Shown here: in pieces, positions 17,296 through 54,616 of the stretch | Layout of the letters: the number at the start of each line of letters is the position of its first letter | Numbering within the stretch: the first letter of the stretch is position 1 | Assembly (NCBI GenBank): GCA_020724525.1 | Contig: DYGU01000004.1 | Location: 35,100 to 99,099, forward strand | Origin: Dehalococcoides mccartyi | Lineage (GTDB): Bacteria > Chloroflexota > Dehalococcoidia > GIF9 > DYGU01 | Direction of reading: 5' to 3' | Length of the DNA: 64,000 bases | The notes under the pieces: generated by a model | Database searches by the model: none | What the model saw: only the letters and a program-made list of their open reading frames with translations | What the model was told of the DNA's origin: nothing | Made by a program: the position numbers and the translations under genes

Positions 17296-17313
17296 GGGAA
17301 AGGAGGAAACAGA

Positions 17314-19200: not shown

Positions 19201-19289
19201 TTTTTGGTCTCCTTTCTTTATAAGTATCGGCTACTAATGGTTTTAAATTATAACTGTTGCTTTTATTAAAGGCAAGCGTTTGTTACAGG

Positions 19290-37360: not shown

Positions 37361-37375
37361 CGCTTGTCTCCTTTA

Positions 37376-38431: not shown

Positions 38432-39310
38432 ATGGTTATTATCGGTGAGAGTATTCATATTATTTCCAAGGTGGTCAGTGATGCTATTAAGGAGAGAAAT
38501 CCAAAGCCAATTCAGGAATTAGCTATCGCTCAAAATAGAGCTGGTGCTGACTATATAGACTTGAACTTGGGTCCAGTCCGCCGAGACCCAGAAGAAACAA
38601 TGCAGTGGCTGGTTAATGCTGTTCAGGAAGTTGTCGTTTTGCCTTTGTCATTAGATACTATGAACCCGATAGCTATGGAAGCCGGGCTTAAAATCTGTAA
38701 CAAACGCCCCTTGCTTAACTCAGCTTCAGGAAAAACAGATAGCAAGGAACAGATGCTTCCTTTAGCCAAAAAATATTCCTGTGATGTGGTTATCTCAGTA
38801 ATCACGGACAGAGGCTGTCCCCCCGGTGTTGATGCCAGAGTTGAGAGTATTATGGAAACGGTGGCGCTGGCTAATGAGATGGGTATTCCCAACGAAGATA
38901 TCTGGGTTGACCCAATTCTGTTGCCGGTTAGTGCCAGCCAGGCTGAGGTTAAGGAAACTCTGGAATTTGTGAAAATATTGTCTGATCTTCTGCCTGGCAT
39001 TAAGTCAACTATAGGGTTGTCTAATATATCCAACGGCACACCTGAAGCCCTCCGGGGTATTCTTAACCGAACTTATATGGTGATGTTAGGCAGATATGGA
39101 CAATATTCAGTGATTGCTGATGCCTTAGACAAGGAGCTTATCAGCCTGAAGAGGGGGGAGATGCCTAACATCGTTGACCTTATTTACCGGACTATGGATG
39201 GGGAGGATATAGACCTTTCGTCCCTGTCGCCAAAAGAGCGGGACTATGTCAAAACAACCAAAGTGCTTACGGGGGAAATATTGTATTCCCACGCCTGGCT
39301 GGAAAGTTGA
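38432..39310 (+). CDS. acsE: Methyltetrahydrofolate:corrinoid/iron-sulfur protein methyltransferase (pterin-binding, AcsE-like).
   Basis: Aligns by eye with AcsE throughout: IIGESIH...DYIDLNLGP...LSLDTMNP...LLNSASG...WVDPILLP...IGLSNISNG. Confidence 0.8.
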   Translation: MVIIGESIHIISKVVSDAIKERNPKPIQELAIAQNRAGADYIDLNLGPVRRDPEETMQWLVNAVQEVVVLPLSLDTMNPIAMEAGLKICNKRPLLNSASGKTDSKEQMLPLAKKYSCDVVISVITDRGCPPGVDARVESIMETVALANEMGIPNEDIWVDPILLPVSASQAEVKETLEFVKILSDLLPGIKSTIGLSNISNGTPEALRGILNRTYMVMLGRYGQYSVIADALDKELISLKRGEMPNIVDLIYRTMDGEDIDLSSLSPKERDYVKTTKVLTGEILYSHAWLES

Positions 39311-39331
39311 TATTTTGATAAAGGAATAAAA

Positions 39332-40237
39332 ATGGAATATAGAGCACCCATTGAAACCTATGCGGGTAAGGTCCGAGAGGTGGTAATTGGTAAGGGGAGT
39401 AAAGCTATGAAGATTGGGGGGGAAAGTATTCTCCCTCTTCATTTTTTTGAGGGCTCTATTGAGAACCCCCCTCGACTTGTTTTAGAGGTCTATGATATGG
39501 AGCCAGACGATTGGGCAGGGGCAGTGCTTGAGCCTTATAAAGATGTTGTTTCCGACCCGGTAAAATGGGCACAGAAATGTTTAGATTTTGGTGCTGACCT
39601 TGTCTGCCTTAAGCTAATGAGTACTGACCCGGGCGGGGAAAATGCACCGGCAGAGGCAGTAGCAGCCCTTACCAAAAAAGTAGCCACCACCATTAACACC
39701 CCCCTCATTGTTTATGGCTCGGGGGATGAGACCAAAGACATTGAGGTGTTAACTAAGGTGGCTGAAGTCTGCGCTGGAGAAAACCTCCTCTTAGGTCCAG
39801 CGGTTAAGGAAAATTATGAGCCGATATGCAAAGCCGCTTTGGACTATGGGCATTGTCTTATTGCCCAGACCCCCATAGATATAAACTTGGAAAAGGAACT
39901 AAATATAAAACTGATGAAGTCCTTTCCACCGGAGAGAATAGTTATTGACCCCTTAAGCTCGGCTTTAGGCTATGGTATTGAATACAGCTTCAGCATAATG
40001 GAAAGGACCAAACACATTGGCATTATGTTTAAGGATGCCACCATGCAGATGCCTATAATCGCCGACCTGGGTAAGGAATCGTGGAAAACCAAAGAAGCTA
40101 AAGCCAGTGAAAAGCAGGGTATATTATGGGAAAGCATTGCGGCTTTAACTTTTCTTTTAGCCGGGGCTAATATTTTGGTCTTGCGTCACCCCGAAACCCT
40201 TAAGTTAATTAAGGAAGTAATTACGGGGAAAATTTGA
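39332..40237 (+). CDS. acsD: Corrinoid/iron-sulfur protein small subunit (AcsD / CdhD-like TIM barrel).
   Basis: 301 aa, adjacent to acsE. A degenerate partial copy of its 3' end recurs at 45682-45817. Confidence 0.75.
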   Translation: MEYRAPIETYAGKVREVVIGKGSKAMKIGGESILPLHFFEGSIENPPRLVLEVYDMEPDDWAGAVLEPYKDVVSDPVKWAQKCLDFGADLVCLKLMSTDPGGENAPAEAVAALTKKVATTINTPLIVYGSGDETKDIEVLTKVAEVCAGENLLLGPAVKENYEPICKAALDYGHCLIAQTPIDINLEKELNIKLMKSFPPERIVIDPLSSALGYGIEYSFSIMERTKHIGIMFKDATMQMPIIADLGKESWKTKEAKASEKQGILWESIAALTFLLAGANILVLRHPETLKLIKEVITGKI

Positions 40238-40319
40238 CCTTACATGAGACCGGTGGGCAAAATACTAAAAGCTTTGATATCTTTGCCCTCGCACGAGAAG
40301 TAGTAGCATCGGAGGGATT

Positions 40320-40796
40320 ATGGAAGACCACCTATCAGAGATTTTGCCATCCTATAGAGGAAAGAGAAGCAAACTGATTCCGATTCTACAAGAGGTTCAG
40401 GCAAAATTTGGCTACCTGCCCGAGGAGGTGATGCGTGAGCTTGCCACGTTTATCGGCATACCGGAGTGTGAGGCATATAGTGTAGCTACTTTTTATGCTC
40501 AATTCCGGCTCATGCCCCTTGGTAAGAAACGGGTTGCGATCTGCCGAGGCACTGCGTGTCACATCAGCGGTGCCCCCAAAATTCTCGAGGCGACAGAGAA
40601 GGTACTCGGCATAAAGGATGGGGAAACCACAGCTGACCTGGAATATACCCTGGAAACTGTTGCCTGTATTGGTTGCTGTGCGCTAGCCCCTTGTCTAAGG
40701 ATTAACGAGGATGTCCATGGTCGGCTGACGCCGGCAAAGGCAAGCGAACTTTTCCCCGCCCCAAGTACAAATAAAGGAGAGCAAGATGTCCAATAG
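40320..40796 (+). CDS. NuoE/HymA-like [2Fe-2S] thioredoxin-fold subunit.
   Basis: 158 aa with the Cys pattern CRGTACH...CIGCCALAP. Overlaps the next gene by 11 nt. Confidence 0.85.
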   Translation: MEDHLSEILPSYRGKRSKLIPILQEVQAKFGYLPEEVMRELATFIGIPECEAYSVATFYAQFRLMPLGKKRVAICRGTACHISGAPKILEATEKVLGIKDGETTADLEYTLETVACIGCCALAPCLRINEDVHGRLTPAKASELFPAPSTNKGEQDVQ

Positions 40797-42603
40797 GCAA
40801 TGCACTGTTTTAGTTTGCCAGGGGACAGGCTGTATTTCAGGGGGGGCCGAACCAATTTACTCTTCACTGGAAGGAGAGATAGCCAAGCCCGATCTGAGGG
40901 AAAACGTTCATCTCAAGCGTACTGGCTGTCATGGCTTTTGCCAACAAGGTCCTCTTGTCATTGTTGAGCCGGAAGGCTTTTTTTATTCAAAAGTTAAACC
41001 AGATGATGTACACGAAATTGTTCAATCACTTTTACCGGAAAGAAAGGTTGTAAAACGCCTCTTATACCGCGACCCTATTACCAATAAGCGTATACCTTAT
41101 TATCGTGATATCCCTTTCTATAGTAAACAACAACGCACGGTGCTTAGAAATTGTGGCAAAATCAACCCCGAGGATATTAATGACTATCTTGCTTCGAATG
41201 GCTATCAGGCGCTGCGGAAGGCTCTTTTTGAGCTCACCTCGGAGCAAATTATTGAGGAGGTGAAACACTCCGGACTTCGGGGACTGGGGGGAGCGGGCTT
41301 CCCTGCTGGACAGAAGTGGGAAGCCTGCCGTAGAGCGCCTGGTGAGGTAAAGTATGTGATCTGCAACGCTGATGAAGGTGACCCCGGGGCATTTCAGGAC
41401 CGCTCAGTTTTAGAGGGAGACCCTCATTCAGTTTTGGAGGGGATGATAATCGCTGGGTATGCTGTTGGTGCAAAACAGGGCTTTGTCTACGTGCGTGCCG
41501 AATATCCACTGGCGGTGAAGCGCCTTTACATTGCCACCGCCCAAGCGAGGGAAAGGGGATTTCTGGGCCGGAATATTTTGGGGAGCGGATTTGTTTTTGA
41601 TATAGAGATCTTCCAGGGAGCCGGAGCCTTCGTTTGTGGCGAGTCTACAGCGCTAGTCCTTTCCATTGAAGGCAAAAGGGGGATGCCGAAGTCTCTCCCT
41701 CGTCCCAGAACTACCGAGGTAGGGTTATGGGGTAAGCCAACTTTGCTTAATAATGTAAAGACCTTCGCCAATATCCCTCTGATTATTATTCATGGTTCAG
41801 AGTGGTTTGCCTCCAGAGGCACTGAGCGGAGTAAAGGCACGGCTATTTACTCACTGACGGGCAAGGTGGCAAACTGCGGTCTGATAGAAGTGCCTATGGG
41901 AATTAAGCTTCGAGAAATTGTCTATGGTATTGGAGGAGGACCTCCGGGAGGGAAGGCTTTCAAGGCGGTCCAAACCGGCGGACCCTCAGGTGGTTGTCTT
42001 CCGGCAGAGCTTTTGGATATGCCGATCGATTTTGACTCACTTACTGCCGCCGGCTCGATGATGGGCTCGGGAGGCGTAGTGGTGGTGGATGAAGATACCT
42101 GCATGGTTGATGTAGCCCGCTATTTTCTTGACTTCACCCAAAAAGAATCCTGCGGTCAATGTTTGCCATGTAGACTCGGCACGTACCAGATGCTTCAAAT
42201 ATTGGAAAGGATTACAAGGGGGGAGGGGGTACCCGGCGACATAGAGAGACTTGAGTGGATTGGACGGAGGGTCAAGGAGTATTCTCTTTGTGGACTTGGA
42301 ACGACTGCGCCAAATCCTGTGCTTAGTACTATTAAATATTTTCGTGAGGAATATGAAGAGCATATTTATAATAAATACTGCCGGGCAAAGGTCTGCGCCT
42401 TAGGCATGTTCCGGATTGAACCGGATGAATGTGTTCTCTGTGGCCTTTGCCAAGGGGTATGTGAAACTGGGGCGGTAAAGGAAATCAGGAATAAGTTTTT
42501 TATAGTCCAGGATTACTGCAACAAATGCAAGTCCTGCTATACTATCTGTCCTGTTGGGGCAGTAAGGGTGGAGAAATACTTACCTAAAGAGGTGACAAAG
42601 TGA
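40786..42603 (+). CDS. NuoF/HymB-like flavoprotein: N-terminal [2Fe-2S] domain, FMN/NAD(P)H domains, an N3-type [4Fe-4S], and two C-terminal ferredoxin motifs.
   Basis: GGAGFPAGQKWE and CNADEGDPGAF (FMN/NADH site); ESCGQCLPCRLGT-x39-C; C-terminal CVLCGLCQGVCETGAV and CNKCKSCYTICPVGAV. Confidence 0.85.
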   Translation: MSNRQCTVLVCQGTGCISGGAEPIYSSLEGEIAKPDLRENVHLKRTGCHGFCQQGPLVIVEPEGFFYSKVKPDDVHEIVQSLLPERKVVKRLLYRDPITNKRIPYYRDIPFYSKQQRTVLRNCGKINPEDINDYLASNGYQALRKALFELTSEQIIEEVKHSGLRGLGGAGFPAGQKWEACRRAPGEVKYVICNADEGDPGAFQDRSVLEGDPHSVLEGMIIAGYAVGAKQGFVYVRAEYPLAVKRLYIATAQARERGFLGRNILGSGFVFDIEIFQGAGAFVCGESTALVLSIEGKRGMPKSLPRPRTTEVGLWGKPTLLNNVKTFANIPLIIIHGSEWFASRGTERSKGTAIYSLTGKVANCGLIEVPMGIKLREIVYGIGGGPPGGKAFKAVQTGGPSGGCLPAELLDMPIDFDSLTAAGSMMGSGGVVVVDEDTCMVDVARYFLDFTQKESCGQCLPCRLGTYQMLQILERITRGEGVPGDIERLEWIGRRVKEYSLCGLGTTAPNPVLSTIKYFREEYEEHIYNKYCRAKVCALGMFRIEPDECVLCGLCQGVCETGAVKEIRNKFFIVQDYCNKCKSCYTICPVGAVRVEKYLPKEVTK

Positions 42604-43445
42604 TAAGGATGGAGGATGTAAAGGCAAAGGCAGAGGAGAGAAGGTGTCCACTGCAGAAAGCAATTGTCTTCATAGAGGAGTTTTTAAATGAACCACTGTG
42701 TGGAGAATGTCTTCCGTGCACACTTGGGAGTCAGGAACTTAAGATAAGGTTACAGAAGATTGCCGACGGTAAAGGAACTCAATTAGATATCGATGCTATA
42801 GATAAAATTACCGGACATATGCTTGAGATATCAAGATGTAGGAAAGGTATGGATACAGCGAGATTCATAATAGACTCTACAAAGGAAGGCTCATTTAAAG
42901 GACATCTTGAGGGGGTGTGTAATGAAAAAGAATGCCTGTCACTTATTATGTACCGGATTATACCTGAGAAGTGCGTAATGTGCGGCACTTGTCAAGATAT
43001 TTGTAAAGAGAATGCAATAATCGGGGAAAAGAAAAAGCCTTTAAGCTACCAGCCTATTCAGATAAATGCCAGGAAATGCAGAAGTGAAAGGGGTTGTAAT
43101 GAGTGCGTAAGAGTATGTCCTACAGGAGCAATAGAGGTGATAGAGGTAGAAGGTAGGTACTTGCCTTTTGAGATAAGTCAGAAGAGATGTACAAGATGTG
43201 ATGAATGTATAAAGGTGTGTCCTGTTTCAGGAGCAATAGGGGTAATAGAGATAGCTGGTTTAAGGGTAGTACCAATTGACTGGTTAGATATTTCAAAAGC
43301 AATAGGGGTAGCAGATATAGGCTTCCGACCTTTTGAGATAGTTCAGAAGAGATGCACCACCAAATGTGGTGAGTGTATAAAGGGATGTCCCTCAGGAGCA
43401 ATAGAGGTGGTAGATATAAAAGAGCAAGTAGCAGTTGGCAGTTAG
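42600..43445 (+). CDS. Polyferredoxin with an N-terminal NuoF-C-terminal-like [4Fe-4S] module and tandemly repeated [4Fe-4S] motifs.
   Basis: CGECLPCTLGS-x39-C reproduces the NuoF N3 cluster spacing. It is followed by CVMCGTCQDICKENA and a series of CxRCDECIKVCP / CTTKCGECIKGCP units. The 3' third contains an about 130 bp tandem DNA duplication (43140-43400). AT-rich, with AGA/ATA-biased codon usage. Confidence 0.7.
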   Translation: MIRMEDVKAKAEERRCPLQKAIVFIEEFLNEPLCGECLPCTLGSQELKIRLQKIADGKGTQLDIDAIDKITGHMLEISRCRKGMDTARFIIDSTKEGSFKGHLEGVCNEKECLSLIMYRIIPEKCVMCGTCQDICKENAIIGEKKKPLSYQPIQINARKCRSERGCNECVRVCPTGAIEVIEVEGRYLPFEISQKRCTRCDECIKVCPVSGAIGVIEIAGLRVVPIDWLDISKAIGVADIGFRPFEIVQKRCTTKCGECIKGCPSGAIEVVDIKEQVAVGS

Positions 43446-43468
43446 AACAAAAAGGATAAGGAGAGAAA

Positions 43469-45511
43469 ATGGCAGATTTGGTAACAGTAAAGATAGACGG
43501 CCGGCAAGTTAGTGTCCCGCCAGGGACTAATCTGATTGATGCCGCTGAGATAGCTGGCATTCATATACCAAACCTTTGTTATCTTAAGGGTATGAGGGGA
43601 GTAGGCGCATGCCGGCTCTGCCTTGTTGAGGTGGCGGGGGCAGAAAGGCTAATGGTAGCCTGCATGACAAGGGTTAGGGAAGGGATGAGTGTAATTACAA
43701 ATTCAGAGCGCGTGCTCGACGGCCGAAGATTTGTGATTGACATTATTATTTCTATGCATCCTCTTGATTGTATGACATGCACAAAGAGCGGTGTCTGCAA
43801 ACTCCAAAAATACGCTTATGATTTTGGGTTGAAGGAGTCGAGCTTTACCAGGAAGAGATTTGACTACCCAACTGATGAGGCAAATCCATTCATAAAGCGT
43901 GACCCTGATTACTGTATACTCTGTGGACGCTGTGTGCGAATGTGTAAGGCACAGGGCACCAGTGTGCTTGACTTTATGAGAAGGGGTATTAGTACAAAGG
44001 TTACTACAACCCGAGACAGACCACTTCACGAGTCAGGATGCACATTTTGTGGCAGCTGTGTTGATGTCTGTCCTACCAATGCCTTTGTCGAAGCCGGCAG
44101 ATGGGGAAAGGGTAGGGAGTGGGAATATGAGGATATAAGTTCTGTATGCCTTTACTGTGGTAACAGCTGTGATATAAATGTGAGCCGAAAAGACAACGAG
44201 ATCATAAAGATTAGTAGTAATGCCCCTGAGGACTCGGTTGAACACTATTTATGCGCTATCGGCAGATTTGGTTTTGACTATATCCACTCTCATACCAAGG
44301 TGATGTCTCCTATGAAAAGAGTAGATGGTAAACTTCAGGCGACAACATGGGAAGAGGCACTTGATATTGTTGCCGCTAAACTCAAAGATGCCGGCATGGA
44401 TGCCGGATTTGTCAGCACGGCAGACATCCTTAATGAAGATGCTTTAGTGTTAAGGAGATTTGCTAAGGATGTTGTTAAGACAAAAAACTTTGATACAACT
44501 GTAAGCCTTTATGCCGAAGCTGACTCTATGAGGCTTTCGGGTGTGGCTAATATGGATAAAGCAGACCTTATAGTAGTTGTTGGACTTAACCCATCTCAGT
44601 GGGAGAGGGTTCTTCCTGCCCTTGATGCCTCAATAAGAAAAAAGCTTGACAGGGGTGCAAAACTTATTGTCATAAATTCGGCTGAGACACGGCTTTCATC
44701 TGTAGCCGATATAACCCTCAGGGGAGAGGAGGTATCTAATCTCAAGGCAATTGTAAAGGCATTGATAGACAGGGGTTTTAAGGCTGACAAAGAAATAGAG
44801 GATGCCGTTTCAGGGGCAAAAATTTCCGAAGATATTGAAAATGCTGCAAAATTATATGCTGAGTCAAAGAGCCCATTAATCCTGGTAGCGCCATCCCTTT
44901 ATAATGCCTCAGCCAATATTGGACTTCTTAGTTCCTCCTCCCCACTCACTACCTCGTTGGTTGCAGTTCCAGCAGAGAGCAATGCCAGAGGTGTTGTTCT
45001 TATGGGGCTGACGACAAAAAACAAAACATACAGAGATATGATTTCAGGTGATATAAAGTTGCTATATGTACTCGGTGAGATACCTTTAGCGGAAAGACCA
45101 AATGTTGATTTCCTTATAGCACAGAGTTCACACTTTACCGAACTTTCAAAGCAAGCTGATATAGTCCTTCCAGCGTCAGCTGCCCTTGAGGCAGAGGGCA
45201 GTATTGTGGACTATCTTGGCAGACTGAAATATCTACGTAAAGCAGTTGCGCCGGCAGGCGAGGCTAAATTACATCGGGAGATATTTATGGAGCTTTCCAA
45301 GATAATGGGTTGTCCAATCGAGGTACCAAAAGAGACAGAGATTAAAGAGTCTTTAAGGATAGAGGTAAAACCCTCATTTAGTCCCTTTAAGAAAAAAGAG
45401 GGACTTGATTTTGGCTTTTACGAGATGATTGAACTAATAAATGCCTCAGTGATTGGTAGTTCAAGGTTATTGTGGCTTAAAGAGGCTAAGATACTTCAAA
45501 AGGTCAAATGA
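43469..45511 (+). CDS. NuoG / formate-dehydrogenase-alpha-like Fe-S subunit (680 aa). It lacks a full molybdopterin C-terminal domain.
   Basis: N-terminal plant-type [2Fe-2S] (CYLKGMRGVGACRLCLV...C), a His-ligated cluster HPLDCMTCTKSGVC, CILCGRCVRMC, CTFCGSCVDVCP, then a MopB-type CLYCGNSCD and a truncated molybdopterin-oxidoreductase-like region. Same AT-rich, AGA/ATA codon bias as the preceding gene. Confidence 0.7.
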   Translation: MADLVTVKIDGRQVSVPPGTNLIDAAEIAGIHIPNLCYLKGMRGVGACRLCLVEVAGAERLMVACMTRVREGMSVITNSERVLDGRRFVIDIIISMHPLDCMTCTKSGVCKLQKYAYDFGLKESSFTRKRFDYPTDEANPFIKRDPDYCILCGRCVRMCKAQGTSVLDFMRRGISTKVTTTRDRPLHESGCTFCGSCVDVCPTNAFVEAGRWGKGREWEYEDISSVCLYCGNSCDINVSRKDNEIIKISSNAPEDSVEHYLCAIGRFGFDYIHSHTKVMSPMKRVDGKLQATTWEEALDIVAAKLKDAGMDAGFVSTADILNEDALVLRRFAKDVVKTKNFDTTVSLYAEADSMRLSGVANMDKADLIVVVGLNPSQWERVLPALDASIRKKLDRGAKLIVINSAETRLSSVADITLRGEEVSNLKAIVKALIDRGFKADKEIEDAVSGAKISEDIENAAKLYAESKSPLILVAPSLYNASANIGLLSSSSPLTTSLVAVPAESNARGVVLMGLTTKNKTYRDMISGDIKLLYVLGEIPLAERPNVDFLIAQSSHFTELSKQADIVLPASAALEAEGSIVDYLGRLKYLRKAVAPAGEAKLHREIFMELSKIMGCPIEVPKETEIKESLRIEVKPSFSPFKKKEGLDFGFYEMIELINASVIGSSRLLWLKEAKILQKVK

Positions 45512-45681
45512 TACTGGTGGGGTTCCTAATAGGAGTATCCAACAGGATGCCACAAGAGTTTAGGTGGATTCTTATTGATGATGCTATCCAGGTATGGTCA
45601 ATTGGCTTGGATGGGGAGAGAAGCTTAAATAAGGGATAAATGCTTAGTATTGTTGACCTTGTCAAAGATAGCATGACACAC

Positions 45682-45817
45682 ATGCCTATAATTGCTGACC
45701 TGGGCGGGAATGCTGGAAAGCCAAAGAAGCCTTCTTTTAGTCGGGGCTAACATTTTAGTATTACGGCACCCAGATAACTACAAACTAATTAAGGAAGTGA
45801 TTCAGCAGAAATTTGAT
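45682..45817 (+). pseudogene. Vestigial duplicate of the acsD 3' end (non-coding remnant) immediately upstream of cdhA.
   Basis: CATGCCTATAATTGCTGACCTGGG...CCAAAGAAGC...CTAATTAAGGAAGTGATT...AAATTTGAT matches acsD 40046-40237 (ATGCCTATAATCGCCGACCTGGG...CTTAAGTTAATTAAGGAAGTAATTACGGGGAAAATTTGA). It carries an internal deletion and stop codons. Confidence 0.6.
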
Positions 45818-45854
45818 AAAAAATGAGAATGAATTGCTATAAGAATAAGATTAA

Positions 45855-48182
45855 ATGCCAGAGGAGGTATATAACGTGGTAGTAATAGTTAAGAAAAAGA
45901 CAAGGAAAGACGAGAAACTGGAAATTATACGAGCCGAGGACTTATGGGAACCAGTAGGCCCGACGCCAATGCCGGACCTTGCTGATTTGAGAAACTGGGA
46001 CATGAGACTGCTCAAAACCTATAAGCCTTTTTATGCCCCCTTCTGCGACTTATGCTGCTTTTGTACCTATGGCAAATGCGACCTTACTGGTGAACAAGGG
46101 GGTGCCTGTGGCATTGATATGCCCACTCAGCAAGGAAGGATAGTTCTTCTGGCTTGCTGTGGGGGGGTTGCGGCTCATGGTGCTCATGGCAGGCATATTA
46201 TTGACTATTTGATTGAGAAATATGGAGAAGATTATAAAATTGACCTGGGAACACAGGTAGCTGTAGAAGCACCAATAATCAGGACTGTTCTTGGTCTTAA
46301 ACCAGAGACTCTGGGAGATTTAAAGAAAGCTATAGAGTATGTGGAACGAGGGCTCATTCATCTTGTTTCCTCACTACACACCGGTCAGGAGGGGAGTGAT
46401 TTAGATTACGAATCAAAAGCTCTCCACGCCGGGATGCTTGACCATGTCGCCCTGGAGGTTACTGATATTGCCCAGATTGTCGGCTTCAGCTTTCCCACAT
46501 CTATTGCTGATACTCCTTTGGTGGATTTCGGTTGGGGAGTAGTAGACAAAACTAAGCCGGTAATTTTATGTATTGGGCATAATCCAGCTACAGCCACTTC
46601 CATTATTGATTACTTGAACCAGAACAATTTGCAAGATGAAGTTGAGGTCTGTGGAATATGTTGCACTGCCCTTGAGGTAACCAGATATTCAAAAGCAGCC
46701 AAAGTTATCGGTCCTCTATCCCGGCAGCTTTTCTTTGTGAGGAGCGGTGTGGCTGATGTCATTGTTACTGAGGAACAGTGTATAAGAGCTGATACTTCCC
46801 TTGAAGCCAAGAAGGCAGGTTCGGCTCTAATTGCTGCCTCGGACAAAGCTTGTTACGGACTTGATAATGTCACTGAAAAGGAAGCCGATGAGATTGTTAA
46901 GGAGATGGTGGAGGTAGGAAAGCAAGTATTGATACTTGTCCCGGAGAAGGCAGCTGAGGTGGCGGTAAAGGTAGCTATAAAAATTGCTCGACAAAGGGAA
47001 AAAGAACTTATTGAGGCATCTCAGGTTCCTGAACTTGTCCAGGAATGTCATAATTGCCGTATTTGTGACCGGAACTGCCCTAACCTTTTGCCTGTAGGTG
47101 AAGCGGTGGAGCAAGCTGGTAAAGGCAACTTGGAAAAGTTAATTGAGGTGTTTAATAAGTGCCTTGGCTGTGGCAAGTGTGAGCAAGACTGCCCTCGTAA
47201 TATTCCTATTTTAAAGCTGATGCAGGCGGTTGCCAGCGGGGAAACTTTTAAGCTCAGGAGCGGGCGTGGACCCATCCATGATGTGGAAATAAGAAAGGTT
47301 GGCGCCCCTATTGTCTTAGGGACTATACCTGGAGTTGTTGCCTTTGTTGGTTGCTCTAACTTCCCTGAGGAAATAGATGAAGTGGCTGAGATGATGGAGG
47401 AGTTTGCCCGGAGGAAGTATATTGTAGTAGCTTCAGGCTGCGCTGCCATGGCGGCGGCGACGAAGAAAGATGCCGAAGGAAAAACTATTTATGAGAAGTA
47501 CCCCCCCGATTTCGATGCTGGCGGTGTTTTGAATGTGGGCTCCTGTGTGGCTAATTCTCATATTGCAGGAGCGGCTATAAAAATAGCCAACATTTTTGCC
47601 GCTCTGCCATTGAGAGCTAATTACGAGGTCATTGCTGACTATATTCTTAACCGGGTTGGGGCTTGTGGGGTTGCCTGGGGGGCTTATTCCTGGAAAGCAG
47701 CGGCAATTGCCACCGGCTGTAATAGATGGGGAATTCCAGTAGTTGTTGGTCCTCACTCTTCCAAATACCGGAGGCTCTATCTCAGTCGGAAAGAGGAAGA
47801 TGACTGGACAGTGATGGATGGCAGGACAAGGCAGTTAGTGGATACTCAGGAGCCATCTCCAGAGCATTTAATCAATGTAGTTGAGTCTAAAGAACGAGCT
47901 ATAGTCACTATAGCCAAGCTATGCATCCGGAAAAATGATACCCCTCAGGGGAGGCAGATAAAGCTTAACCATTACATTGCTCTTCATAAGCAATATCTGG
48001 GAACTCTACCCGATGATCTTCACCTCTTTATCCGACGAACTACTGACATTCCCATTTTCTTCAAAAAGGAGGTTATGGAATATCTCCAAAAAGTTGGCTG
48101 GAAAGAAAAGCCAGTATTGACTTTACCAACTCTGATCGGGACTTACCCTTCTAAGGTGCCTCTGGAGGCTGTTATCCATTAA
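45855..48182 (+). CDS. cdhA: CO dehydrogenase catalytic subunit, archaeal CdhA type (ACDS alpha).
   Basis: N-terminus GPTPMPDLADLRNWDMRLLKTYKPFYAPFCDLCCFCTYGKCDLTGEQGGACGIDM...AAHGAHGRHIIDYLIEKYGED closely follows archaeal CdhA. Mid-protein has two ferredoxin-type motifs (CHNCRICDRNCP, CLGCGKCEQDCP) characteristic of CdhA. Confidence 0.85.
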   Translation: MPEEVYNVVVIVKKKTRKDEKLEIIRAEDLWEPVGPTPMPDLADLRNWDMRLLKTYKPFYAPFCDLCCFCTYGKCDLTGEQGGACGIDMPTQQGRIVLLACCGGVAAHGAHGRHIIDYLIEKYGEDYKIDLGTQVAVEAPIIRTVLGLKPETLGDLKKAIEYVERGLIHLVSSLHTGQEGSDLDYESKALHAGMLDHVALEVTDIAQIVGFSFPTSIADTPLVDFGWGVVDKTKPVILCIGHNPATATSIIDYLNQNNLQDEVEVCGICCTALEVTRYSKAAKVIGPLSRQLFFVRSGVADVIVTEEQCIRADTSLEAKKAGSALIAASDKACYGLDNVTEKEADEIVKEMVEVGKQVLILVPEKAAEVAVKVAIKIARQREKELIEASQVPELVQECHNCRICDRNCPNLLPVGEAVEQAGKGNLEKLIEVFNKCLGCGKCEQDCPRNIPILKLMQAVASGETFKLRSGRGPIHDVEIRKVGAPIVLGTIPGVVAFVGCSNFPEEIDEVAEMMEEFARRKYIVVASGCAAMAAATKKDAEGKTIYEKYPPDFDAGGVLNVGSCVANSHIAGAAIKIANIFAALPLRANYEVIADYILNRVGACGVAWGAYSWKAAAIATGCNRWGIPVVVGPHSSKYRRLYLSRKEEDDWTVMDGRTRQLVDTQEPSPEHLINVVESKERAIVTIAKLCIRKNDTPQGRQIKLNHYIALHKQYLGTLPDDLHLFIRRTTDIPIFFKKEVMEYLQKVGWKEKPVLTLPTLIGTYPSKVPLEAVIH

Positions 48183-48199
48183 AAGGAGGTTTAAGTAAT

Positions 48200-48745: not shown

Positions 48746-48748
48746 AAA

Positions 48749-49975: not shown

Positions 49976-49997
49976 AGACTAAATTAGGAGGTTTGTC

Positions 49998-51365
49998 ATG
50001 CCACTTAAAGGGACTGATATTGTCAAAAAGCTTCCTGAATCGGGCAAAAAGAACTGTAAGGAATGTGGTTTCCCTACCTGCTTTGCCTTTGCTATGAAGT
50101 TAGCCTCAGGGGGGACTACTGTGGACAAGTGTCCCTATCTTTCCCCAGAGGTCAAGGCTGAATTAGAAGATGCCTTAGCTCCTCCGATACGGTTGGTTAC
50201 CATTGGTCGTGGTGAAAATAGCCTTCAGATTGGTAATGAAGAAGTAATTTACAGGCATGAGAAGACCTTTATCCATAAACCTGGCATTGCCTTTCTTATT
50301 TCTGACATAGAGAGCGAGGCTAAGGTTGAGGAAAAGGTGGAGAAGCTTAGGGGACTCCAGTTTCCGCGGGTAGGGCTAACCCTTAAAGCTGACCTGCTGG
50401 CTTTAAGGAATGAATCAGGGGAAAAATCTAAGTTTGAAGCTTTAGTAAGGAGAGTTTACCAGAATACTGATGCTCCCCTTATATTAATTTCTGAGGATAC
50501 AGATGCCCTGTTTTTGGCTCGGGACATATGTGCCGATAGGTCACCCCTTGTTTATCCCATAACTAAAGAAAATATCGATGAGGCAATTCCGAAAATAAAG
50601 GAGAAGCCAACTCCGGTGGGAGTGCGGGGACAAAATATTGAAGACCTTATTTTCCTTACCACTAAATTGAAAGACGCCGGAATTGGAGATATAGTTTTAG
50701 ACCCTGGCTCCAGATGCTTTCAGCAAGCTATAGCTGATCAGACTCTAATTCGCCGCGCCGCTTTAAAGCAGAATTTTAGACCTTTGGGCTATCCTACTAT
50801 TGGCTTTCCTTGTTTCATGGCTAAAGATAACTTGAGGGAGTTCCTTGTTGCGGCTATGTTTATTATTAAATACGCTGGGATTATTGTCCTTTCCGATACC
50901 GACAAGGAATCGTTACTGCCCCTATTAGTCCAAAGACTTAGTATCTACACTGACCCCCGGATACCTATGTCTGTTGAAGACAAAGTATATGAAATCCTCG
51001 AAGCTACTGAAGAATCGCCTGTACTCCTGACTGCTAATTGGGCATTGACCTATTTTATCGTTTCCGGGGAAATTGAAGGTAGTAAGGTTTCGTCTTGGCT
51101 GTGCGTTAAGAATACGGAAGGGCTGGGGGTGCTTACTGCCTGGGCAGCCGGTAAGTTTTCCGGTGATACTATAGGTCCCTTTATCAGGAAATGTGGCATT
51201 GAAGGTAAGGTGAAACATCGCCGGCTAATTATTCCGGGGAAAGTAGCCCGGATTAAAGGCGAGCTGGAAGAGGCATTGCCTGGCTGGGAAATTATTGTTG
51301 GACCTCGGGAAGCCGCTGAAATCCCAGCCTTTTTGCCAACCCTTGTGCGGCAGTGGCAGAACTAA
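49998..51365 (+). CDS. acsC: Corrinoid/iron-sulfur protein large subunit (AcsC / CdhE).
   Basis: N-terminal [4Fe-4S] motif CKECGFPTCFAFAMKLASGGTTVDKCPY, followed by TIM-barrel and B12-binding regions. Confidence 0.85.
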   Translation: MPLKGTDIVKKLPESGKKNCKECGFPTCFAFAMKLASGGTTVDKCPYLSPEVKAELEDALAPPIRLVTIGRGENSLQIGNEEVIYRHEKTFIHKPGIAFLISDIESEAKVEEKVEKLRGLQFPRVGLTLKADLLALRNESGEKSKFEALVRRVYQNTDAPLILISEDTDALFLARDICADRSPLVYPITKENIDEAIPKIKEKPTPVGVRGQNIEDLIFLTTKLKDAGIGDIVLDPGSRCFQQAIADQTLIRRAALKQNFRPLGYPTIGFPCFMAKDNLREFLVAAMFIIKYAGIIVLSDTDKESLLPLLVQRLSIYTDPRIPMSVEDKVYEILEATEESPVLLTANWALTYFIVSGEIEGSKVSSWLCVKNTEGLGVLTAWAAGKFSGDTIGPFIRKCGIEGKVKHRRLIIPGKVARIKGELEEALPGWEIIVGPREAAEIPAFLPTLVRQWQN

Positions 51366-51835
51366 AAGAGCGTCTTCAGAGGCTCCTAACTGAAGAAAAA
51401 AGGGACAAACGACACTTAATTTCCCTCCTTCAGGAAATTCAACAGGAGTTTAGTTATCTTCCTCGGGAAGTGATGTTGGAAATTGCCTGGTTCCTGGGAG
51501 TATCTCCGAGCACTGTTTATAGTGTAACTACTTTCTTTAATCAATTCCGCTTTACCCCGGTGGGAAAGCATCCCATAAGAATCTGTCTGGGAACAGCTTG
51601 TCATCTGGCTGGGGGTAAGTTAGTCCTGGAAACTGTGGAAAGGGAGCTTGATATTAAAGTTGGTGGTGTAACTGCTGATGGTCAATTTGGTTTGGAGAGG
51701 GTGGCTTGCATTGGCTGCTGTGCTCTGGCTCCGGTAATGACCATTAATGGTGACGTTTACTCCAGGCTGACTCCGCTAAAGATGGAAGAGGTGTTGACTT
51801 TGCTTAAGTCTGGTGGTGAGTCTGAAAGAAAGTGA
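51353..51835 (+). CDS. NuoE-like [2Fe-2S] subunit (second copy).
   Basis: 160 aa with CLGTACH...CIGCCALAP. Host-like codon usage. Overlaps acsC by 13 nt. Confidence 0.85.
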   Translation: MAELKERLQRLLTEEKRDKRHLISLLQEIQQEFSYLPREVMLEIAWFLGVSPSTVYSVTTFFNQFRFTPVGKHPIRICLGTACHLAGGKLVLETVERELDIKVGGVTADGQFGLERVACIGCCALAPVMTINGDVYSRLTPLKMEEVLTLLKSGGESERK

Positions 51836-53721
51836 CCTTCAAAGAAATTCAGAAACTGGCAAGAGCTGAGTGGGACTCTCTCTATTATGGGGAAATTCCT
51901 CTTATCCTTGTGGGTACTGCGACCTGCGGTCGGGCTGCTGGCGCCTTGGCTGTGGTTGAGGCTTTTGAAAAAGAAATAGTCCGGCGGAAGGCTGCTGCCA
52001 GAGTTATCCAGGTTGGCTGTATGGGGCTTTGTTATACTGAACCCCTGGTCACTATAATCAAACCTAAATCCTTTCGGGTTTGCTACAAAAATATTACCCC
52101 GGACTTGGTACCTCGGCTTGTAGAAGGCTATATTTTGGGTGATGACCCTTGTTTGGAGCTTGCTTTGGGCACCTTAGCCGGGGGTAATGGTGAAGCTATC
52201 TCCATTCCTGAACTGTCTCGGTTTGAAAAGGAGCCTCGCCTCATTATGCGCCGCTGCGGCTATATTAACCCTGAAGATATAAAACACTATGTTGCCAGCG
52301 GTGGGTATAGTAGCTTGGTTCGGGCTTTACAAATGCCCGCCCGGGAAATAATTAGTCAGCTAAAAAGGTCGGGGTTAAGAGGGATGGGCGGCGCCGGTTT
52401 CCCCACCGGAGAAAAATGGGAACTTTGTCAAAAAGCTAAAGGTAAGCCTAAATATGTGATATGCAATGCTGATGAAGGTGACCCCGGCGCTTTTATGGAC
52501 CGGGTTGTCCTGGAAAGTGACCCCCACCAGGTTTTAGAAGGCATGATTATCGCCGGTTATGCTTTGGGTAGTTCTCAAGGCTATATTTATATTCGAGCCG
52601 AATACCCTTTAGCTATTAAGCGTTTGAAGATTGCCCTTGACCAGGCTCAAGAATATGGTTTTTTAGGTAAAAACATATTAGGCACTGTTTTTAGTTTTTA
52701 CATAGAATTAGAATCAGGAGCTGGGGCTTTTGTCTCTGGTGAGGCGACGGCGCTGATGCGTGCCATCGAAGGCAAGCGGAGCATACCGAGGGCAAGACCA
52801 CCACATTCGGTAGAGGCTGGCTTGTGGGGGAAGCCAACTTTACTTAATAATGTAAAAACTTTTGTTTTTGTTCCTCTCATAATAGCCCGCGGCGCTGACT
52901 GGTTTTCTACTATAGGCACCGAAAGAAGTAAGGGGACAGCCATTTTCGCTTTAGCTGGTAAGATAACCAATACCGGCTTAGTTGAAGTGCCTATGGGAAC
53001 GACTTTGCGTGAGCTAATTTTTGATATTGGTGGTGGTATTCGGCAGGGTAAGCTTTTCAAAGGAATACAAATTGGAGGTCCCTCAGGAGGTTGCTTGCCG
53101 GCGAGTCTCCTGGAAACTCCCGTTGACTTTGATTCTTTGTCTAAAGCCGGAGCCATGATGGGTTCCGGTGGGCTAATTGTCATGGATGAGGACAATTGTA
53201 TGGTAGATACGGCTCGCTTCTTCCTTGATTTTACCCAGAAAGAGTCCTGTGGCAAATGCACCACCTGCCGTATAGGTACTAAACAAATGCTGGATGTATT
53301 GGAAGATATTGTTGCCGGAAGAGGCAAAATAGAAGATATGGATTTGCTTGTTGAGTTGGGTGAAGATATCAGGGATGGCTCCCTTTGTGGCTTAGGCAGA
53401 ACGGCTTCCAACCCGGTGCTGACTACTATCCGCTATTTTCATGATGAATATGAGGCTCATATTCTCGAAAAACGCTGCCCGGCTCTGGTTTGTAAAGAGC
53501 TTATTGCCTATTATATTATTCCGGAAAAATGTGAGAAAGGCTGTGAACATTGTGTTCTCAATTGCCCGGTAAAAGCCATTTCCAGCGATGAAAGGAGACT
53601 GAAAATTATTGACCAGACGAAGTGTACTAAATGTGGCACTTGCCTGGAGGTATGTCCCGCTGAGTATAATGCTGTGGTAAAATTATCACCTCCTACTTTA
53701 GTGCCAATGAAGGAGGGTTAA
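51832..53721 (+). CDS. NuoF-like flavoprotein (second copy), with N-terminal thioredoxin-like domain and C-terminal ferredoxin motifs.
   Basis: GGAGFPTGEKWE, CNADEGDPGAF, ESCGKCTTCRIGT-x39-C, C-terminal CEKGCEHCVLNCP and CTKCGTCLEVCP. About 65% identical by eye to the 40786 copy across the core. Confidence 0.85.
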   Translation: MTFKEIQKLARAEWDSLYYGEIPLILVGTATCGRAAGALAVVEAFEKEIVRRKAAARVIQVGCMGLCYTEPLVTIIKPKSFRVCYKNITPDLVPRLVEGYILGDDPCLELALGTLAGGNGEAISIPELSRFEKEPRLIMRRCGYINPEDIKHYVASGGYSSLVRALQMPAREIISQLKRSGLRGMGGAGFPTGEKWELCQKAKGKPKYVICNADEGDPGAFMDRVVLESDPHQVLEGMIIAGYALGSSQGYIYIRAEYPLAIKRLKIALDQAQEYGFLGKNILGTVFSFYIELESGAGAFVSGEATALMRAIEGKRSIPRARPPHSVEAGLWGKPTLLNNVKTFVFVPLIIARGADWFSTIGTERSKGTAIFALAGKITNTGLVEVPMGTTLRELIFDIGGGIRQGKLFKGIQIGGPSGGCLPASLLETPVDFDSLSKAGAMMGSGGLIVMDEDNCMVDTARFFLDFTQKESCGKCTTCRIGTKQMLDVLEDIVAGRGKIEDMDLLVELGEDIRDGSLCGLGRTASNPVLTTIRYFHDEYEAHILEKRCPALVCKELIAYYIIPEKCEKGCEHCVLNCPVKAISSDERRLKIIDQTKCTKCGTCLEVCPAEYNAVVKLSPPTLVPMKEG

Positions 53722-53839
53722 AAATCCCCATGACAGATATCGTCTAAACCAAGACTTTTGCCTGCAGCAATAAACTGTCATGGGGTCCCCATTATGGCTT
53801 ATTGCTGGGGACATATGTAAAAGGTAGACGCTATCCATA

Positions 53840-54616
53840 ATGGGGTTTAGAAGGAGGGTTAAGTTGACTACTGTTGCCGTTGCCGGAAAGGGAGGTGTCG
53901 GTAAAACAGTCATCGCTGCTTTGTTAATAAAGGCTCTTTCGGAAAAGGGTGTGGTTCTGGCGATTGATGCTGACCCCAGTACTAACCTGAATTTAGCTTT
54001 GGGCTTACCTCTAACCGAAACTGTGGGCAGAGTGCGCGAAGACCTGACCGAGGACATTACTAAAGGAAGTTTGCCTACTGGGGTATCCAAGCAAGAACTT
54101 CTGGATATGAAGATAAGGGAAGCTTTGGTCGAGTCAGCCAGAATTGACCTTTTAGCTATGGGACGCCCTGAGGGTCCTGGCTGTTATTGCGCCGCTAATC
54201 ATATGCTCCGTCTCTCCATTGACCAGCTGGCTAAGAGTTATGATTATACAGTCATAGATTGTGAAGCCGGTATGGAACATATTAGCCGACGGACAACCCG
54301 TGATATAGATATTTTGCTTATTATTTCTGACCCCACAATACGGGGTGTGACCGCAGCAGCTCGGATGAAGGAACTTATGAAAGAATTACGCACCAGGACA
54401 GGGAAAATTTATCTAGCAGTGAACCGGGTAAAAGACGGACTCCCTAAAGAAATTGGAGAAGCTATTAATAAGTCCGGGCTTAACCTGATTGCTATCATAC
54501 CTGAAGACCCTAACATTGCTCCTTTGGAAGTAAAAGGAGCCCCTCTCGTTGAACTTCCGCCTGATTCCCCTCTCCAGTCGGGGGTAAGAGAAATAGTTAC
54601 CAAGTTAGGTCTTTGA
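53840..54616 (+). CDS. cooC: CooC/AcsF-type Ni-insertion ATPase (MinD family). A TTG start at 53864 is possible.
   Basis: P-loop VAVAGKGGVGKT and a CooC-like CxC motif (GPGCYCAANHM). Confidence 0.8.
   Translation: MGFRRRVKLTTVAVAGKGGVGKTVIAALLIKALSEKGVVLAIDADPSTNLNLALGLPLTETVGRVREDLTEDITKGSLPTGVSKQELLDMKIREALVESARIDLLAMGRPEGPGCYCAANHMLRLSIDQLAKSYDYTVIDCEAGMEHISRRTTRDIDILLIISDPTIRGVTAAARMKELMKELRTRTGKIYLAVNRVKDGLPKEIGEAINKSGLNLIAIIPEDPNIAPLEVKGAPLVELPPDSPLQSGVREIVTKLGL

Follow-up and report, generated by a model that had tools for sequence, protein, structure and literature searches.

A hybrid archaeal/bacterial CO dehydrogenase/acetyl-CoA synthase operon with two NADH-flavoprotein gene sets in an uncultured Dehalococcoidia bacterium

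A hybrid six-subunit CO dehydrogenase/acetyl-CoA synthase (CODH/ACS) has been reported for NPL-UPA2 (Unc8), Ca. Desulforudis audaxviator and Chloroflexi bacterium RBG_13_51_36 (Suzuki et al., PMC6305446); elsewhere in the literature it is described as an archaeal-like CdhABCDE with a bacterial-like AcsE. The operon of the Hakuba Actinobacteria is ordered acsED-cdhABC-acsC (Merino et al. 2020, PMC7325909), and the hybrid is also present in type II Acetothermia, where an ancient transfer from Euryarchaeota to Bacteria was inferred (Colman et al., PMC9586279). The account in PMC6305446, which follows Adam et al. 2018, is likewise of a single ancient transfer from Euryarchaeota, after which the enzyme spread among bacteria. 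Here we describe an operon of this kind at positions 38432-54616 of a 64-kb stretch of contig DYGU01000004.1 (the window, i.e. the whole DNA analysed), in which the CODH/ACS genes stand together with two sets of genes for NADH-dependent flavoproteins of the NuoE/NuoF type.

Electron-bifurcating enzymes of the Bfu family have a BfuBC core with FMN and six clusters, of which B2-B5 are missing from non-bifurcating homologues (Schut et al. 2022, PMC9304861). The same authors predicted a 'Codh-Bfu' from four Firmicutes sequences. This enzyme is uncharacterised, its BfuB falls in clade 49, and the gene for a stand-alone CooS-type CODH lies between bfuB and bfuA, a sandwiched gene order that was taken as the sign of a single enzyme. 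NuoEF sets had earlier been read as NADH-regenerating 'FP fragments' (PMC3971608, PMC6305446). In the searchable literature, the link between NuoEF and complete CODH/ACS operons is met in passing remarks only.

The region contains 14 open reading frames (ORFs), all co-directional on the plus strand, Table 1. Their families were assigned with Pfam and NCBIfam models, and structural matches were sought in the PDB. We read the region with good confidence as the carbonyl-branch Wood-Ljungdahl operon of an uncultured member of the Dehalococcoidia, encoding a hybrid CODH/ACS whose proposed redox partner is a set of NuoE/NuoF flavoproteins of the Bfu/HydBC type. The archaeal/bacterial mosaic is already published; the unusual trait is the presence of two NADH-flavoprotein gene sets on one operon. 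The genes listed in a preliminary description of this DNA were all found where it had placed them, on the plus strand, and acsD, acsC, the polyferredoxin gene and a NuoG-like gene can be added to its list.

The CO dehydrogenase subunit is of the archaeal CdhA type, as first described. It scores 1125.7 bits against the TIGR00314 cdhA model (cut-off 781.3), and just 66.9 bits against the CooS model TIGR01702 (cut-off 478) and 62 bits against NF040764 (cut-off 800). In the PDB it matches the alpha subunit of the archaeal acetyl-CoA decarbonylase/synthase (ACDS) 8riu_A with 859 bits and the Methanosarcina alpha subunits with 709-723 bits, while the bacterial CODH structures reach 45-62 bits, none above 62. 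Residues 395-450 match Pfam Fer4, and two CxxCxxCxxxCP motifs of this mid-protein ferredoxin insert are visible in the alignment. Further Cys/His motifs are conserved there as well, presumably at the B-, D- and C-cluster ligand positions of Ni-CODHs. The longest ORF begins at ATG 45855 (775 aa), but the start is probably GTG 45876 (768 aa), with GAGGAGG 8 nt upstream and the same start in the JGI gene call. An exact look-up of the 775-aa protein gave no match because public gene calls start at the GTG.

The next gene encodes, also as first proposed, the CdhB epsilon subunit, otherwise specific to archaea, with 136.3 bits against TIGR00315 (cut-off 101.2), 107 bits against Pfam CO_dh, and archaeal epsilon subunits (1ytl_A, 3cf4_G; 86 bits) as the only PDB matches. 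The preliminary description would have given way to a bacterial CooS/AcsA identity of the 775-aa protein or to a 181-aa protein without CdhB homology; the former is far below the CooS cut-off and the latter has this homology. The short CdhC had been recognised correctly too. It scores 606.6 bits against TIGR00316 (cut-off 355.95) and matches the archaeal beta subunit 9c0s_E with 463 bits versus 402 bits for the Carboxydothermus acetyl-CoA synthase (ACS). It aligns only to residues 319-723 of bacterial ACS, so the N-terminal domain of the bacterial protein is missing. Both the CxxC..C..C and the Cys-Gly-Cys motifs are kept in the alignment, and by reference to the Moorella enzyme we take them to be the A-cluster ligands.

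The methyl-transfer proteins are of bacterial type. AcsE, a subunit of the bacterial enzyme only, finds its best PDB matches in the methyltransferases of Moorella and Carboxydothermus (1f6y_A, 166 bits; 2yci_X, 165 bits), with residues 1-238 aligned to 1-237, and scores 223.7 bits against NF005719, which is under the cut-off of 259. AcsD obtains 369 bits with NF003376 (cut-off 280) and matches the bacterial corrinoid Fe-S protein 2h9a_B over its full length (283 bits). At 301 aa it has the short bacterial length without the archaeal N-terminal extension, and the archaeal model TIGR00381 is covered only at positions 63-370, under its cut-off. AcsC scores 568 bits with NF003195 (cut-off 306) and matches the bacterial corrinoid Fe-S protein 2h9a_A over its full length (390 bits). 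The corrinoid proteins matched by the two subunits are those of Carboxydothermus and Moorella. No archaeal gamma or delta structure is found among the PDB matches of AcsC and AcsD. The last gene encodes a CooC-like ATPase with a GKGGVGKT P-loop and a GCYC (CxC) motif, which we take to be the one expected of CooC. In many related loci a homologue stands at this place in the operon, and the name cooC was assigned on motif and synteny. The operon is thus predicted to encode CdhABC plus AcsCDE, i.e. an apparently intact hybrid six-subunit CODH/ACS with a nickel chaperone. This agrees with the co-occurrence, noted earlier, of AcsE, NuoEF-like flavoproteins (now two NuoE/NuoF pairs) and a CooC-like ATPase in one operon.

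To place the locus, one genome per species was scanned for CdhA relatives, which gave 124 hits, and gene order was compared in the best 80 of these (L001-L080). The best 80 share 66-82% identity with CdhA, and their genomes are bacterial without exception; some 59 carry the label Chloroflexota or Dehalococcoidia, and the others Desulfobacterota-like, Coprothermobacterota, Ca. Psychracetigena or Acetothermia. The common gene order, by tblastn, is (cooC)-acsE-acsD-cdhA-cdhB-cdhC-acsC-nuoE-nuoF-(cooC). The hybrid operon is the common form in uncultured Dehalococcoidia. The notability first ascribed to the mosaic therefore falls away: it was already published, about 59 Chloroflexota or Dehalococcoidia loci among the best 80 relatives have the same order, and its site is inherited. 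It had also been remarked that the best-studied Dehalococcoidia are reported to lack a CODH. This is documented only for Dehalococcoides mccartyi, a member of the same class that has acetyl-CoA synthase and corrinoid-protein genes but no CO dehydrogenase, and that accumulates CO (PMC6113397, citing Zhuang 2014). It does not hold as a property of the class, in which dozens of uncultured members encode CdhA; the window, like them, has intact CdhA and CdhB.

The closest locus among the best 80, in the Dehalococcoidia metagenome-assembled genome (MAG) C0_12 (L025), is 82-90% identical along the operon, and its flanks match those of the window at 72-89% amino acid identity (TldD-TldD-PAC2-GNAT-ECH-HBD upstream, MutL downstream). 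Nucleotide homology between the two is about 78% up to the acsD stop codon. Five other Dehalococcoidia loci (L008, L011, L016, L017, L021) also have MutL downstream of the operon. The synteny of both flanks with MAG C0_12 identifies the host lineage as Dehalococcoidia, and the conserved chromosomal position of the operon in this clade shows that it was inherited vertically and is not newly embedded. A recent acquisition from an archaeon, or a chimeric archaeal/bacterial mis-assembly, would also give a mosaic. CdhABC are closest to archaeal proteins among solved structures, and the literature infers an ancient Euryarchaeota-to-Bacteria transfer (PMC9586279, PMC6305446). However, cdhABC share the GC content and codon usage of the housekeeping genes, synteny with MAG C0_12 extends over the operon and both flanks at 72-90% amino acid identity, the same contig was obtained from two independent data sets, and the best 80 of the 124 CdhA relatives are all bacterial. 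We regard this explanation as effectively refuted; from the bacterial relatives, the synteny and the matching composition, any archaeal transfer must be ancient and predate the lineage.

Several relatives depart from the common order. A DUF166 (PF02593) gene stands between cdhA and cdhB in 29 of the 80 related operons, from Chloroflexota, Coprothermobacterota, Desulfobacterota-like bacteria and Acetothermia (e.g. L001 12323-13021, 232 aa); the window differs from these relatives, as tblastn found no DUF166 match in it. In two single-cell genomes (AH-958-E16, L023; AH-958-J08, L024) a second, divergent set of ACS/CdhC-, CdhD- and CdhE-like genes lies downstream of cooC at 36-40% identity, and NuoEF is missing after acsC.

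We turn to the flavoprotein genes. The pair nuoE2-nuoF2 follows acsC, which nuoE2 overlaps by 13 nt, and is itself joined by a 4-nt overlap. NuoE2 scores 163 bits against 2Fe-2S_thioredx and 146.3 bits against the NuoE model NF005722 (cut-off 141). Of 53 related loci with enough downstream sequence, 45 have NuoE-NuoF immediately after acsC: 32 of 38 in Chloroflexota, 10 of 11 in the Desulfobacterota-like group, 2 of 2 in Coprothermobacterota, 1 of 1 in Psychracetigena and 0 of 1 in Acetothermia. In 51 of 52 loci the distance between the acsC stop and the nuoE start is at most 30 nt, and 22 share the identical 13-nt overlap. NuoE2F2 is the probable ancestral companion of the hybrid enzyme and would be translationally coupled to acsC. 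Two Dehalococcoidia loci (L063 13014-16000; L067 12368-15390) have an extra NuoE/NuoF pair, of the 'F1' group defined below, between cdhA and cdhB and keep the usual pair after acsC, a second and independent route to two flavoprotein modules.

Both NuoF proteins carry the domain set that defines Bfu: the FMN/NADH domain, SLBB, the NuoF-type [4Fe-4S] region and a C-terminal 2x[4Fe-4S] domain. Identity between the two is 52%, and each is matched along its whole length by B subunits of bifurcating enzymes with solved structures (7t2r_B, HydB 7q4v_B and 8a6t_B, NfnB 9n5u_B), as well as by 9bov_B. NuoF1, with Pfam matches to an N-terminal 2Fe-2S_thioredx, Complex1_51K, SLBB, NADH_4Fe-4S and Fer4, matches subunit B of the bifurcating NiFe-HydABCSL (7t2r_B) with 808 bits and HydB 7q4v_B with 742 bits over its full length. 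For NuoF2 the full-length matches are 9bov_B (739 bits), NfnB 9n5u_B (736 bits) and 7t2r_B (732 bits). An H-x5-C-x4-C motif precedes the ferredoxin domain in both, and the N-terminal [2Fe-2S] domain of NuoF1 has four Cys. NuoE1 and NuoE2 match the whole 2Fe-2S_thioredx model. Module 1 has a BfuA-like connector, the 680-aa NuoG-like protein; within the operon none is found for module 2.

Module 1 is the four-gene block nuoE1-nuoF1-polyferredoxin-nuoG, which sits at the acsD/cdhA junction and is found there in none of the best 80 of the 124 related loci. Homology with the C0_12 locus ends at the acsD stop at 40237 and resumes at 45890, where C0_12 has a gap of only about 20 nt between acsD and cdhA. 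The break identifies the block as a clean 5.6-kb insertion. The order NuoE-NuoF-polyferredoxin-NuoG-CdhA recurs at 76-88% identity on contigs of three other samples (L164 among them), and the arrangement was found only in this genome and one related lineage, a small clade from five samples. The contig of the window is that of JGI metagenome 3300029892 (Ga0246235_100077, 102.8 kb), and it was assembled independently in Logan SRR5011273. The two independent assemblies, together with the 76-88% identical version in three further samples, show that the arrangement is not an assembly artefact.

Within the block, NuoE1 scores 168 bits against 2Fe-2S_thioredx and 154.6 bits against NF005722 (cut-off 141). 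The polyferredoxin has NADH_4Fe-4S at residues 22-93 and three Fer4 stretches. Its N-terminal half is a copy of the C-terminal part of BfuB (the NuoF [4Fe-4S] region and ferredoxin domain) and is followed by more [4Fe-4S] motifs; its PDB matches are residues 435-594 of 7t2r_B and other HydB C-termini. The NuoG-like protein shows the Pfam domains Fer2_4, NADH-G_4Fe-4S_3, Fer4, Molybdop_Fe4S4 and Molybdopterin, whereas Molydop_binding (PF01568), the C-terminal pterin-cap domain, was not detected in the Pfam scan. It scores 339.8 bits against the NuoG model TIGR01973, under the cut-off of 470, and matches 9bov_A, 8oh5_C, 7t2r_A and the 75-kDa subunit of complex I in the PDB. To judge from these domains, the molybdopterin-type domain looks cofactor-less, and the protein resembles BfuA-type connectors and complex I NuoG. 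A formate dehydrogenase was considered and rejected, given the missing Molydop_binding domain, an Fdh-alpha score of 163.8 bits (cut-off 666) and a length of 680 aa. Where relatives of the NuoG-like protein are named, they belong to Nitrospirota/Thermodesulfovibrionales at 57-64% identity.

Homologues of the module stand directly after a bacterial-type acsA, in acsD-acsC-acsB-acsA operons, in 30 of 31 informative metagenome loci. Many of these acsA-linked modules have two tandem NuoF paralogues before the polyferredoxin and NuoG-like genes, and L117 has three; the tandem-NuoF loci are of Nitrospirota type (L088-L090, L093, L104, L109, L117, L121, L127, L130, L131). A NuoF tree, computed by neighbour-joining (a distance method) with bootstrap, splits at 100% bootstrap into an 'F2' group linked to the hybrid enzyme and an 'F1' group linked to acsA. 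NuoF2 falls in 'F2' with the C0_12 sequence as its sister. NuoF1 falls in 'F1' and clusters with the NuoFs of L164 and L038 (a named Dehalococcoidia MAG), both linked to an archaeal-type cdhA, in a cluster that is sister to Nitrospirota sequences. CODH/ACS thus has two paralogous flavoprotein families linked to it, both of which are present in the window. A recent transfer of the insert from Nitrospirota was considered, since the named relatives of the NuoG-like protein are Nitrospirota at 60-64% identity, and rejected, as NuoF1 groups with the Dehalococcoidia L164 and L038, sister to Nitrospirota. The GC content of the block is mildly heterogeneous (0.49-0.51 in nuoE1/nuoF1, 0.41-0.44 in the polyferredoxin and nuoG genes), as is its codon usage, which is not decisive for a recent transfer.

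According to the mechanism that we propose, CdhA (C-cluster and extra E/F clusters), CdhB and CdhC (A-cluster ACS) would form an oxidoreductase module of archaeal type, and the corrinoid Fe-S protein AcsC/AcsD with AcsE a methyl-transfer module of bacterial type, with the CooC-like nickel chaperone alongside. The predicted reactions are the reversible CO2 + 2e- -> CO, then CO + CH3-Co(III) + CoA -> acetyl-CoA. Bfu/HydBC-type NuoE/NuoF, and not free ferredoxin alone, would be the redox partner, and in a small sub-clade a second set (NuoE1, NuoF1, polyferredoxin and the NuoG-like protein, i.e. BfuC-BfuB-polyferredoxin-BfuA-like) appears to have been inserted between acsD and cdhA. The likeliest role of these proteins would be to connect the CODH C-cluster with NAD(H) and ferredoxin at once. 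In the direction of synthesis, NADH and reduced ferredoxin would be confurcated to CO2 reduction, which would halve the ferredoxin demand; in the direction of acetyl-CoA oxidation, CO from acetyl-CoA cleavage would be bifurcated to NAD+ and ferredoxin. In anoxic habitats where energy is limiting, this would reduce the ferredoxin cost of the pathway. A low CO activity inside the enzyme could make the CO2/CO couple less negative than the standard -520 mV and bring it between NAD(H) and ferredoxin, which would be the regime of Bfu enzymes (adapted from PMC9304861).

A Bfu-coupled CODH/ACS is plausible but unproven on this genomic evidence, and several points weigh against our reading. Gene adjacency is not proof of a physical complex or of bifurcation. 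Eight of the 53 related operons, the Acetothermia locus among them, have no NuoEF directly after acsC, so the pair is not obligatory. Module 2 has no BfuA, which leaves its electron path to CdhA undefined, and the N-terminal thioredoxin-like domain of NuoF2 keeps only three of the four cluster Cys, as does 9bov_B. Bifurcation is not needed for CO oxidation (E0' about -520 mV) to reduce ferredoxin and NAD+ (PMC9304861). That transcription runs through the gaps of 82 nt and 343 nt on either side of the insert is an assumption, as the promoter and terminator scans over the operon are at chance level. Finally, the placement of CdhABC relative to the archaeal clades is that of the literature and of model and PDB scores. 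A place in the monophyletic bacterial clade of archaeal-like Cdh would fit the best 80 homologues, all of them bacterial, and the published trees (PMC9586279, PMC6305446), which support it indirectly.

The eight operons without the pair and the missing connector of module 2 would suit a weaker association, in which NuoEF(G) is co-located and perhaps co-regulated with CODH/ACS without binding it, as a soluble NADH:ferredoxin or NADH-regenerating diaphorase or as the NAD(H) module of a formate dehydrogenase or methylene-tetrahydrofolate reductase encoded elsewhere. Earlier authors read NuoEF sets in this way, as the 'FP fragments' named above (PMC3971608, PMC6305446). We consider it rather unlikely. 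The acsC/nuoE junction is kept across four phyla (at most 30 nt in 51 of 52 loci, often overlapping), in 30 of 31 loci an independent paralogous module has its place right behind bacterial acsA, and flavoprotein genes are wedged between acsD and cdhA in the window and L164 and between cdhA and cdhB in L063 and L067, a sandwiching that Schut et al. read as a single enzyme (PMC9304861).

The flavoproteins could instead couple to CODH as a simple non-bifurcating NAD(P)H diaphorase, like HoxFU or FdsBG, which would make an NAD(P)+-dependent CO dehydrogenase with no need for ferredoxin. CO is reducing enough for direct NAD+ reduction (Table 1 of PMC9304861), NuoF2 is short of one N-terminal cluster Cys, and versions that are not Bfu exist: in L038 a NuoF without the C-terminal ferredoxin domain and a HoxU-like subunit adjoin the same operon. 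Both NuoFs of the window nevertheless retain the C-terminal 2x[4Fe-4S] domain, and proven bifurcating subunits match them from one end to the other, whereas the characterised non-bifurcating homologues lack clusters B2-B5 (PMC9304861). We therefore hold a simple diaphorase to be unlikely. The L038 operon itself (16049-19968, Dehalococcoidia MAG CedChl2) ends with cooC-NuoE-NuoF(544 aa)-HoxU-like (213 aa), where this NuoF looks like a diaphorase version of the same association.

The translational coupling of nuoE2 to the corrinoid subunit acsC, and not to cdhA, could also mean that NuoEF delivers low-potential electrons for the reactivation of the corrinoid Fe-S protein (Co(II) to Co(I)) in place of the ATP-dependent RACo, and not to the CODH site. 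No RACo-like gene was seen in the operon, to which the search was confined, and this restriction weakens the argument. The paralogous four-gene module adjoins the CODH subunit gene, acsA or cdhA, in 30 of 31 loci and in the window, and a stoichiometric multi-cluster flavoprotein would be costly for occasional repair. Such a function is improbable in our judgement.

We return to the flavoproteins as redox partner of CODH. A wider hypothesis, which we put forward tentatively as a possibility, is an 'Acs-Bfu', i.e. CODH/ACS complexed with BfuBC-type flavoproteins in Dehalococcoidia, Thermodesulfovibrionia-like Nitrospirota, Desulfobacterota and other subsurface anaerobes, for which two paralogous families would have been recruited independently, one by the hybrid CdhABC and one by the bacterial AcsAB. 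Acs-Bfu would not depend on ferredoxin alone but would couple CO2/CO interconversion to NAD(H) and ferredoxin by flavin/Fe-S bifurcation or confurcation. What limits the Wood-Ljungdahl pathway energetically is the supply of low-potential electrons for CO2 -> CO. If NuoEF/Bfu modules feed CODH from NADH and ferredoxin, or divide the electrons from CO between the two, the ATP and ferredoxin book-keeping in metabolic reconstructions of abundant subsurface bacteria would change, and so would the CO concentration range in which the enzyme can work. The general and little-discussed link of Bfu-type flavoproteins to CODH/ACS is the lead worth following. The operons on which it can be tested are defined (45 of the 53 hybrid loci, 30 of the 31 of bacterial type), and the organism of the window, with both modules on one operon, is a natural test case.

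The published hybrid six-subunit CODH/ACS has the same subunit set and the same acsE-acsD-cdhA-cdhB-cdhC-acsC backbone in a bacterial host, and nuoEF genes close to the cluster of Unc8 had been noted before (PMC6305446). In the window this backbone order is kept but interrupted between acsD and cdhA by the 5.6-kb block, and there are two paralogous NuoEF modules. As in Codh-Bfu (PMC9304861), BfuC- and BfuB-like genes, and in module 1 also a BfuA-like gene, are contiguous with a Ni-CODH gene, while module 2 without BfuA resembles 'Type 4' of Schut et al. (PMC9304861). In contrast to Codh-Bfu, the CODH of the window is a CdhA within a complete CODH/ACS, the order is bfuC-bfuB-fd-bfuA-cdhA and the host belongs to the Dehalococcoidia, not the Firmicutes. 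The flavoproteins described here have a complete CODH/ACS as their presumed partner, which is hybrid or, among the Nitrospirota relatives, of bacterial type, and the hosts are Chloroflexota, Nitrospirota, Desulfobacterota and others.

Full-length homology links the alpha, epsilon and beta subunits to those of the archaeal ACDS of methanogens (CdhABCDE; 3cf4, 9c0q-9c0t, 8riu), with scores of 859, 86 and 463 bits. The E/F-cluster insert in alpha is common to both, and the beta subunit likewise has no bacterial N-terminal domain. The window differs from ACDS in its short bacterial delta subunit (301 aa), AcsE, the bacterial host and the NuoEF-type flavoproteins within the operon. The presence of AcsE implies tetrahydrofolate rather than methanopterin chemistry. 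Bacterial AcsA/AcsB of acetogens (Moorella thermoacetica 1mjg/1oao; Carboxydothermus 7zkj) have the same chemistry, a homologous corrinoid protein and AcsE, and the A-cluster motifs. However, the CODH of the window is not of the AcsA/CooS type (45-62 bits), its ACS lacks the AcsA-docking N-terminal domain, and an epsilon subunit is present.

Table 1. Features of the operon at 38432-54616, in positions of the window.
Feature	Position	Strand	Evidence
acsE, methyl-tetrahydrofolate:corrinoid/Fe-S protein methyltransferase	38432-39310	+	Pfam Pterin_bind, 74 bits; MeTr structures
acsD/cdhD, delta (small) corrinoid Fe-S protein subunit, short bacterial form	39332-40237	+	NF003376; 2h9a_B
nuoE1, BfuC/HydC-like thioredoxin-like [2Fe-2S] subunit, first gene of the inserted block	40320-40796	+	2Fe-2S_thioredx, NF005722
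nuoF1, BfuB/HydB-like NADH/FMN subunit, 605 aa	40786-42603	+	Pfam; 7t2r_B, 7q4v_B
polyferredoxin, 281 aa	42600-43445	+	NADH_4Fe-4S and Fer4; HydB C-termini
NuoG-like/BfuA-like Fe-S subunit, 680 aa	43469-45511	+	Pfam; 9bov_A, 8oh5_C, 7t2r_A
spacer, inserted block to cdhA	45512-45875	+	43-aa ORF and likely ribosome-binding site of cdhA
cdhA, archaeal-type CODH alpha subunit with E/F-cluster ferredoxin insert	45855-48182	+	TIGR00314; 8riu_A
cdhB, epsilon subunit, 181 aa	48200-48745	+	Pfam CO_dh, TIGR00315; 1ytl_A, 3cf4_G
cdhC, short archaeal-type acetyl-CoA synthase (A-cluster), 408 aa	48749-49975	+	TIGR00316; 9c0s_E
acsC/cdhE, gamma (large) corrinoid Fe-S protein subunit	49998-51365	+	NF003195, Pfam FeS and CdhD; 2h9a_A
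nuoE2, BfuC-like [2Fe-2S] subunit	51353-51835	+	2Fe-2S_thioredx, NF005722
nuoF2, BfuB-like NADH/FMN subunit, 629 aa	51832-53721	+	Pfam; 9bov_B, 9n5u_B, 7t2r_B
cooC/acsF-like nickel-insertion P-loop ATPase, MinD/ParA-class	53840-54616	+	CbiA, AAA_31, ParA; motifs and synteny

By their spacing the genes form three tight blocks: acsE-acsD, with a gap of 21 nt; nuoE1-nuoF1-polyferredoxin-nuoG, with gaps of -11, -4 and 23 nt; and cdhA-cdhB-cdhC-acsC-nuoE2-nuoF2, with gaps of 17, 3, 22, -13 and -4 nt. The gaps between blocks, 82 nt and 343 nt, both flank the insert, and cooC lies 118 nt farther downstream. Across the operon, the promoter scan gave 28 hits versus 24.7 +/- 4.5 expected and the terminator scan 20 versus 16.2 +/- 4.4, which is chance level and uninformative on internal transcription units. 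The 343-bp spacer (45512-45854) holds a 43-aa ORF at 45508-45639 that has no Pfam match, and no Rfam element was found in the spacer or the rest of the operon. The homologous nuoG-cdhA junction in L164 is only about 44 nt long, so the spacer is specific to the lineage of the window; an internal promoter may lie in it.

Outside the operon the window is an ordinary housekeeping region, as had been stated, with dnaA, gyrB, hisS, relA, mutL and pcrA around the operon. It encodes aspartokinase, phosphoglycerate mutase, MazG, Fmt, DnaA, GyrB, HisS and RelA, further DinB, PyrF, TldD/PmbA, MutL, PcrA and spermidine synthase, and one tRNA-Pro. No other Wood-Ljungdahl genes were found elsewhere in the 64-kb window. 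The genes dnaA (8401-9756, plus strand) and gyrB (11578-13512, minus strand) lie at the cumulative GC-skew minimum at about 8-10 kb, where the local skew flips sign, and from this the replication origin is probably in the window. A scan for DnaA boxes gave 24 near-matches versus 14.4 +/- 3.8 expected, with no clear cluster.

Divergent from acsE, genes for an enoyl-CoA hydratase and a 3-hydroxyacyl-CoA dehydrogenase lie at 36581-38329 on the minus strand and are kept in C0_12 at 82-89% amino acid identity. These conserved beta-oxidation neighbours hint at a link with acetyl-CoA cleavage or synthesis, without fixing the direction. Two adjacent ORFs of 165 aa and 565 aa at 21815-23961 (plus strand) have no Pfam match at E <= 1e-5. 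At 3429-4886 (minus strand) a protein with an Eco57I-type N6-adenine DNA methylase domain is encoded, and at 61795-62853 (minus strand) a stand-alone AAA_26 plus DRTGG protein, which has the domain pair of the phosphotransacetylase N-terminus.

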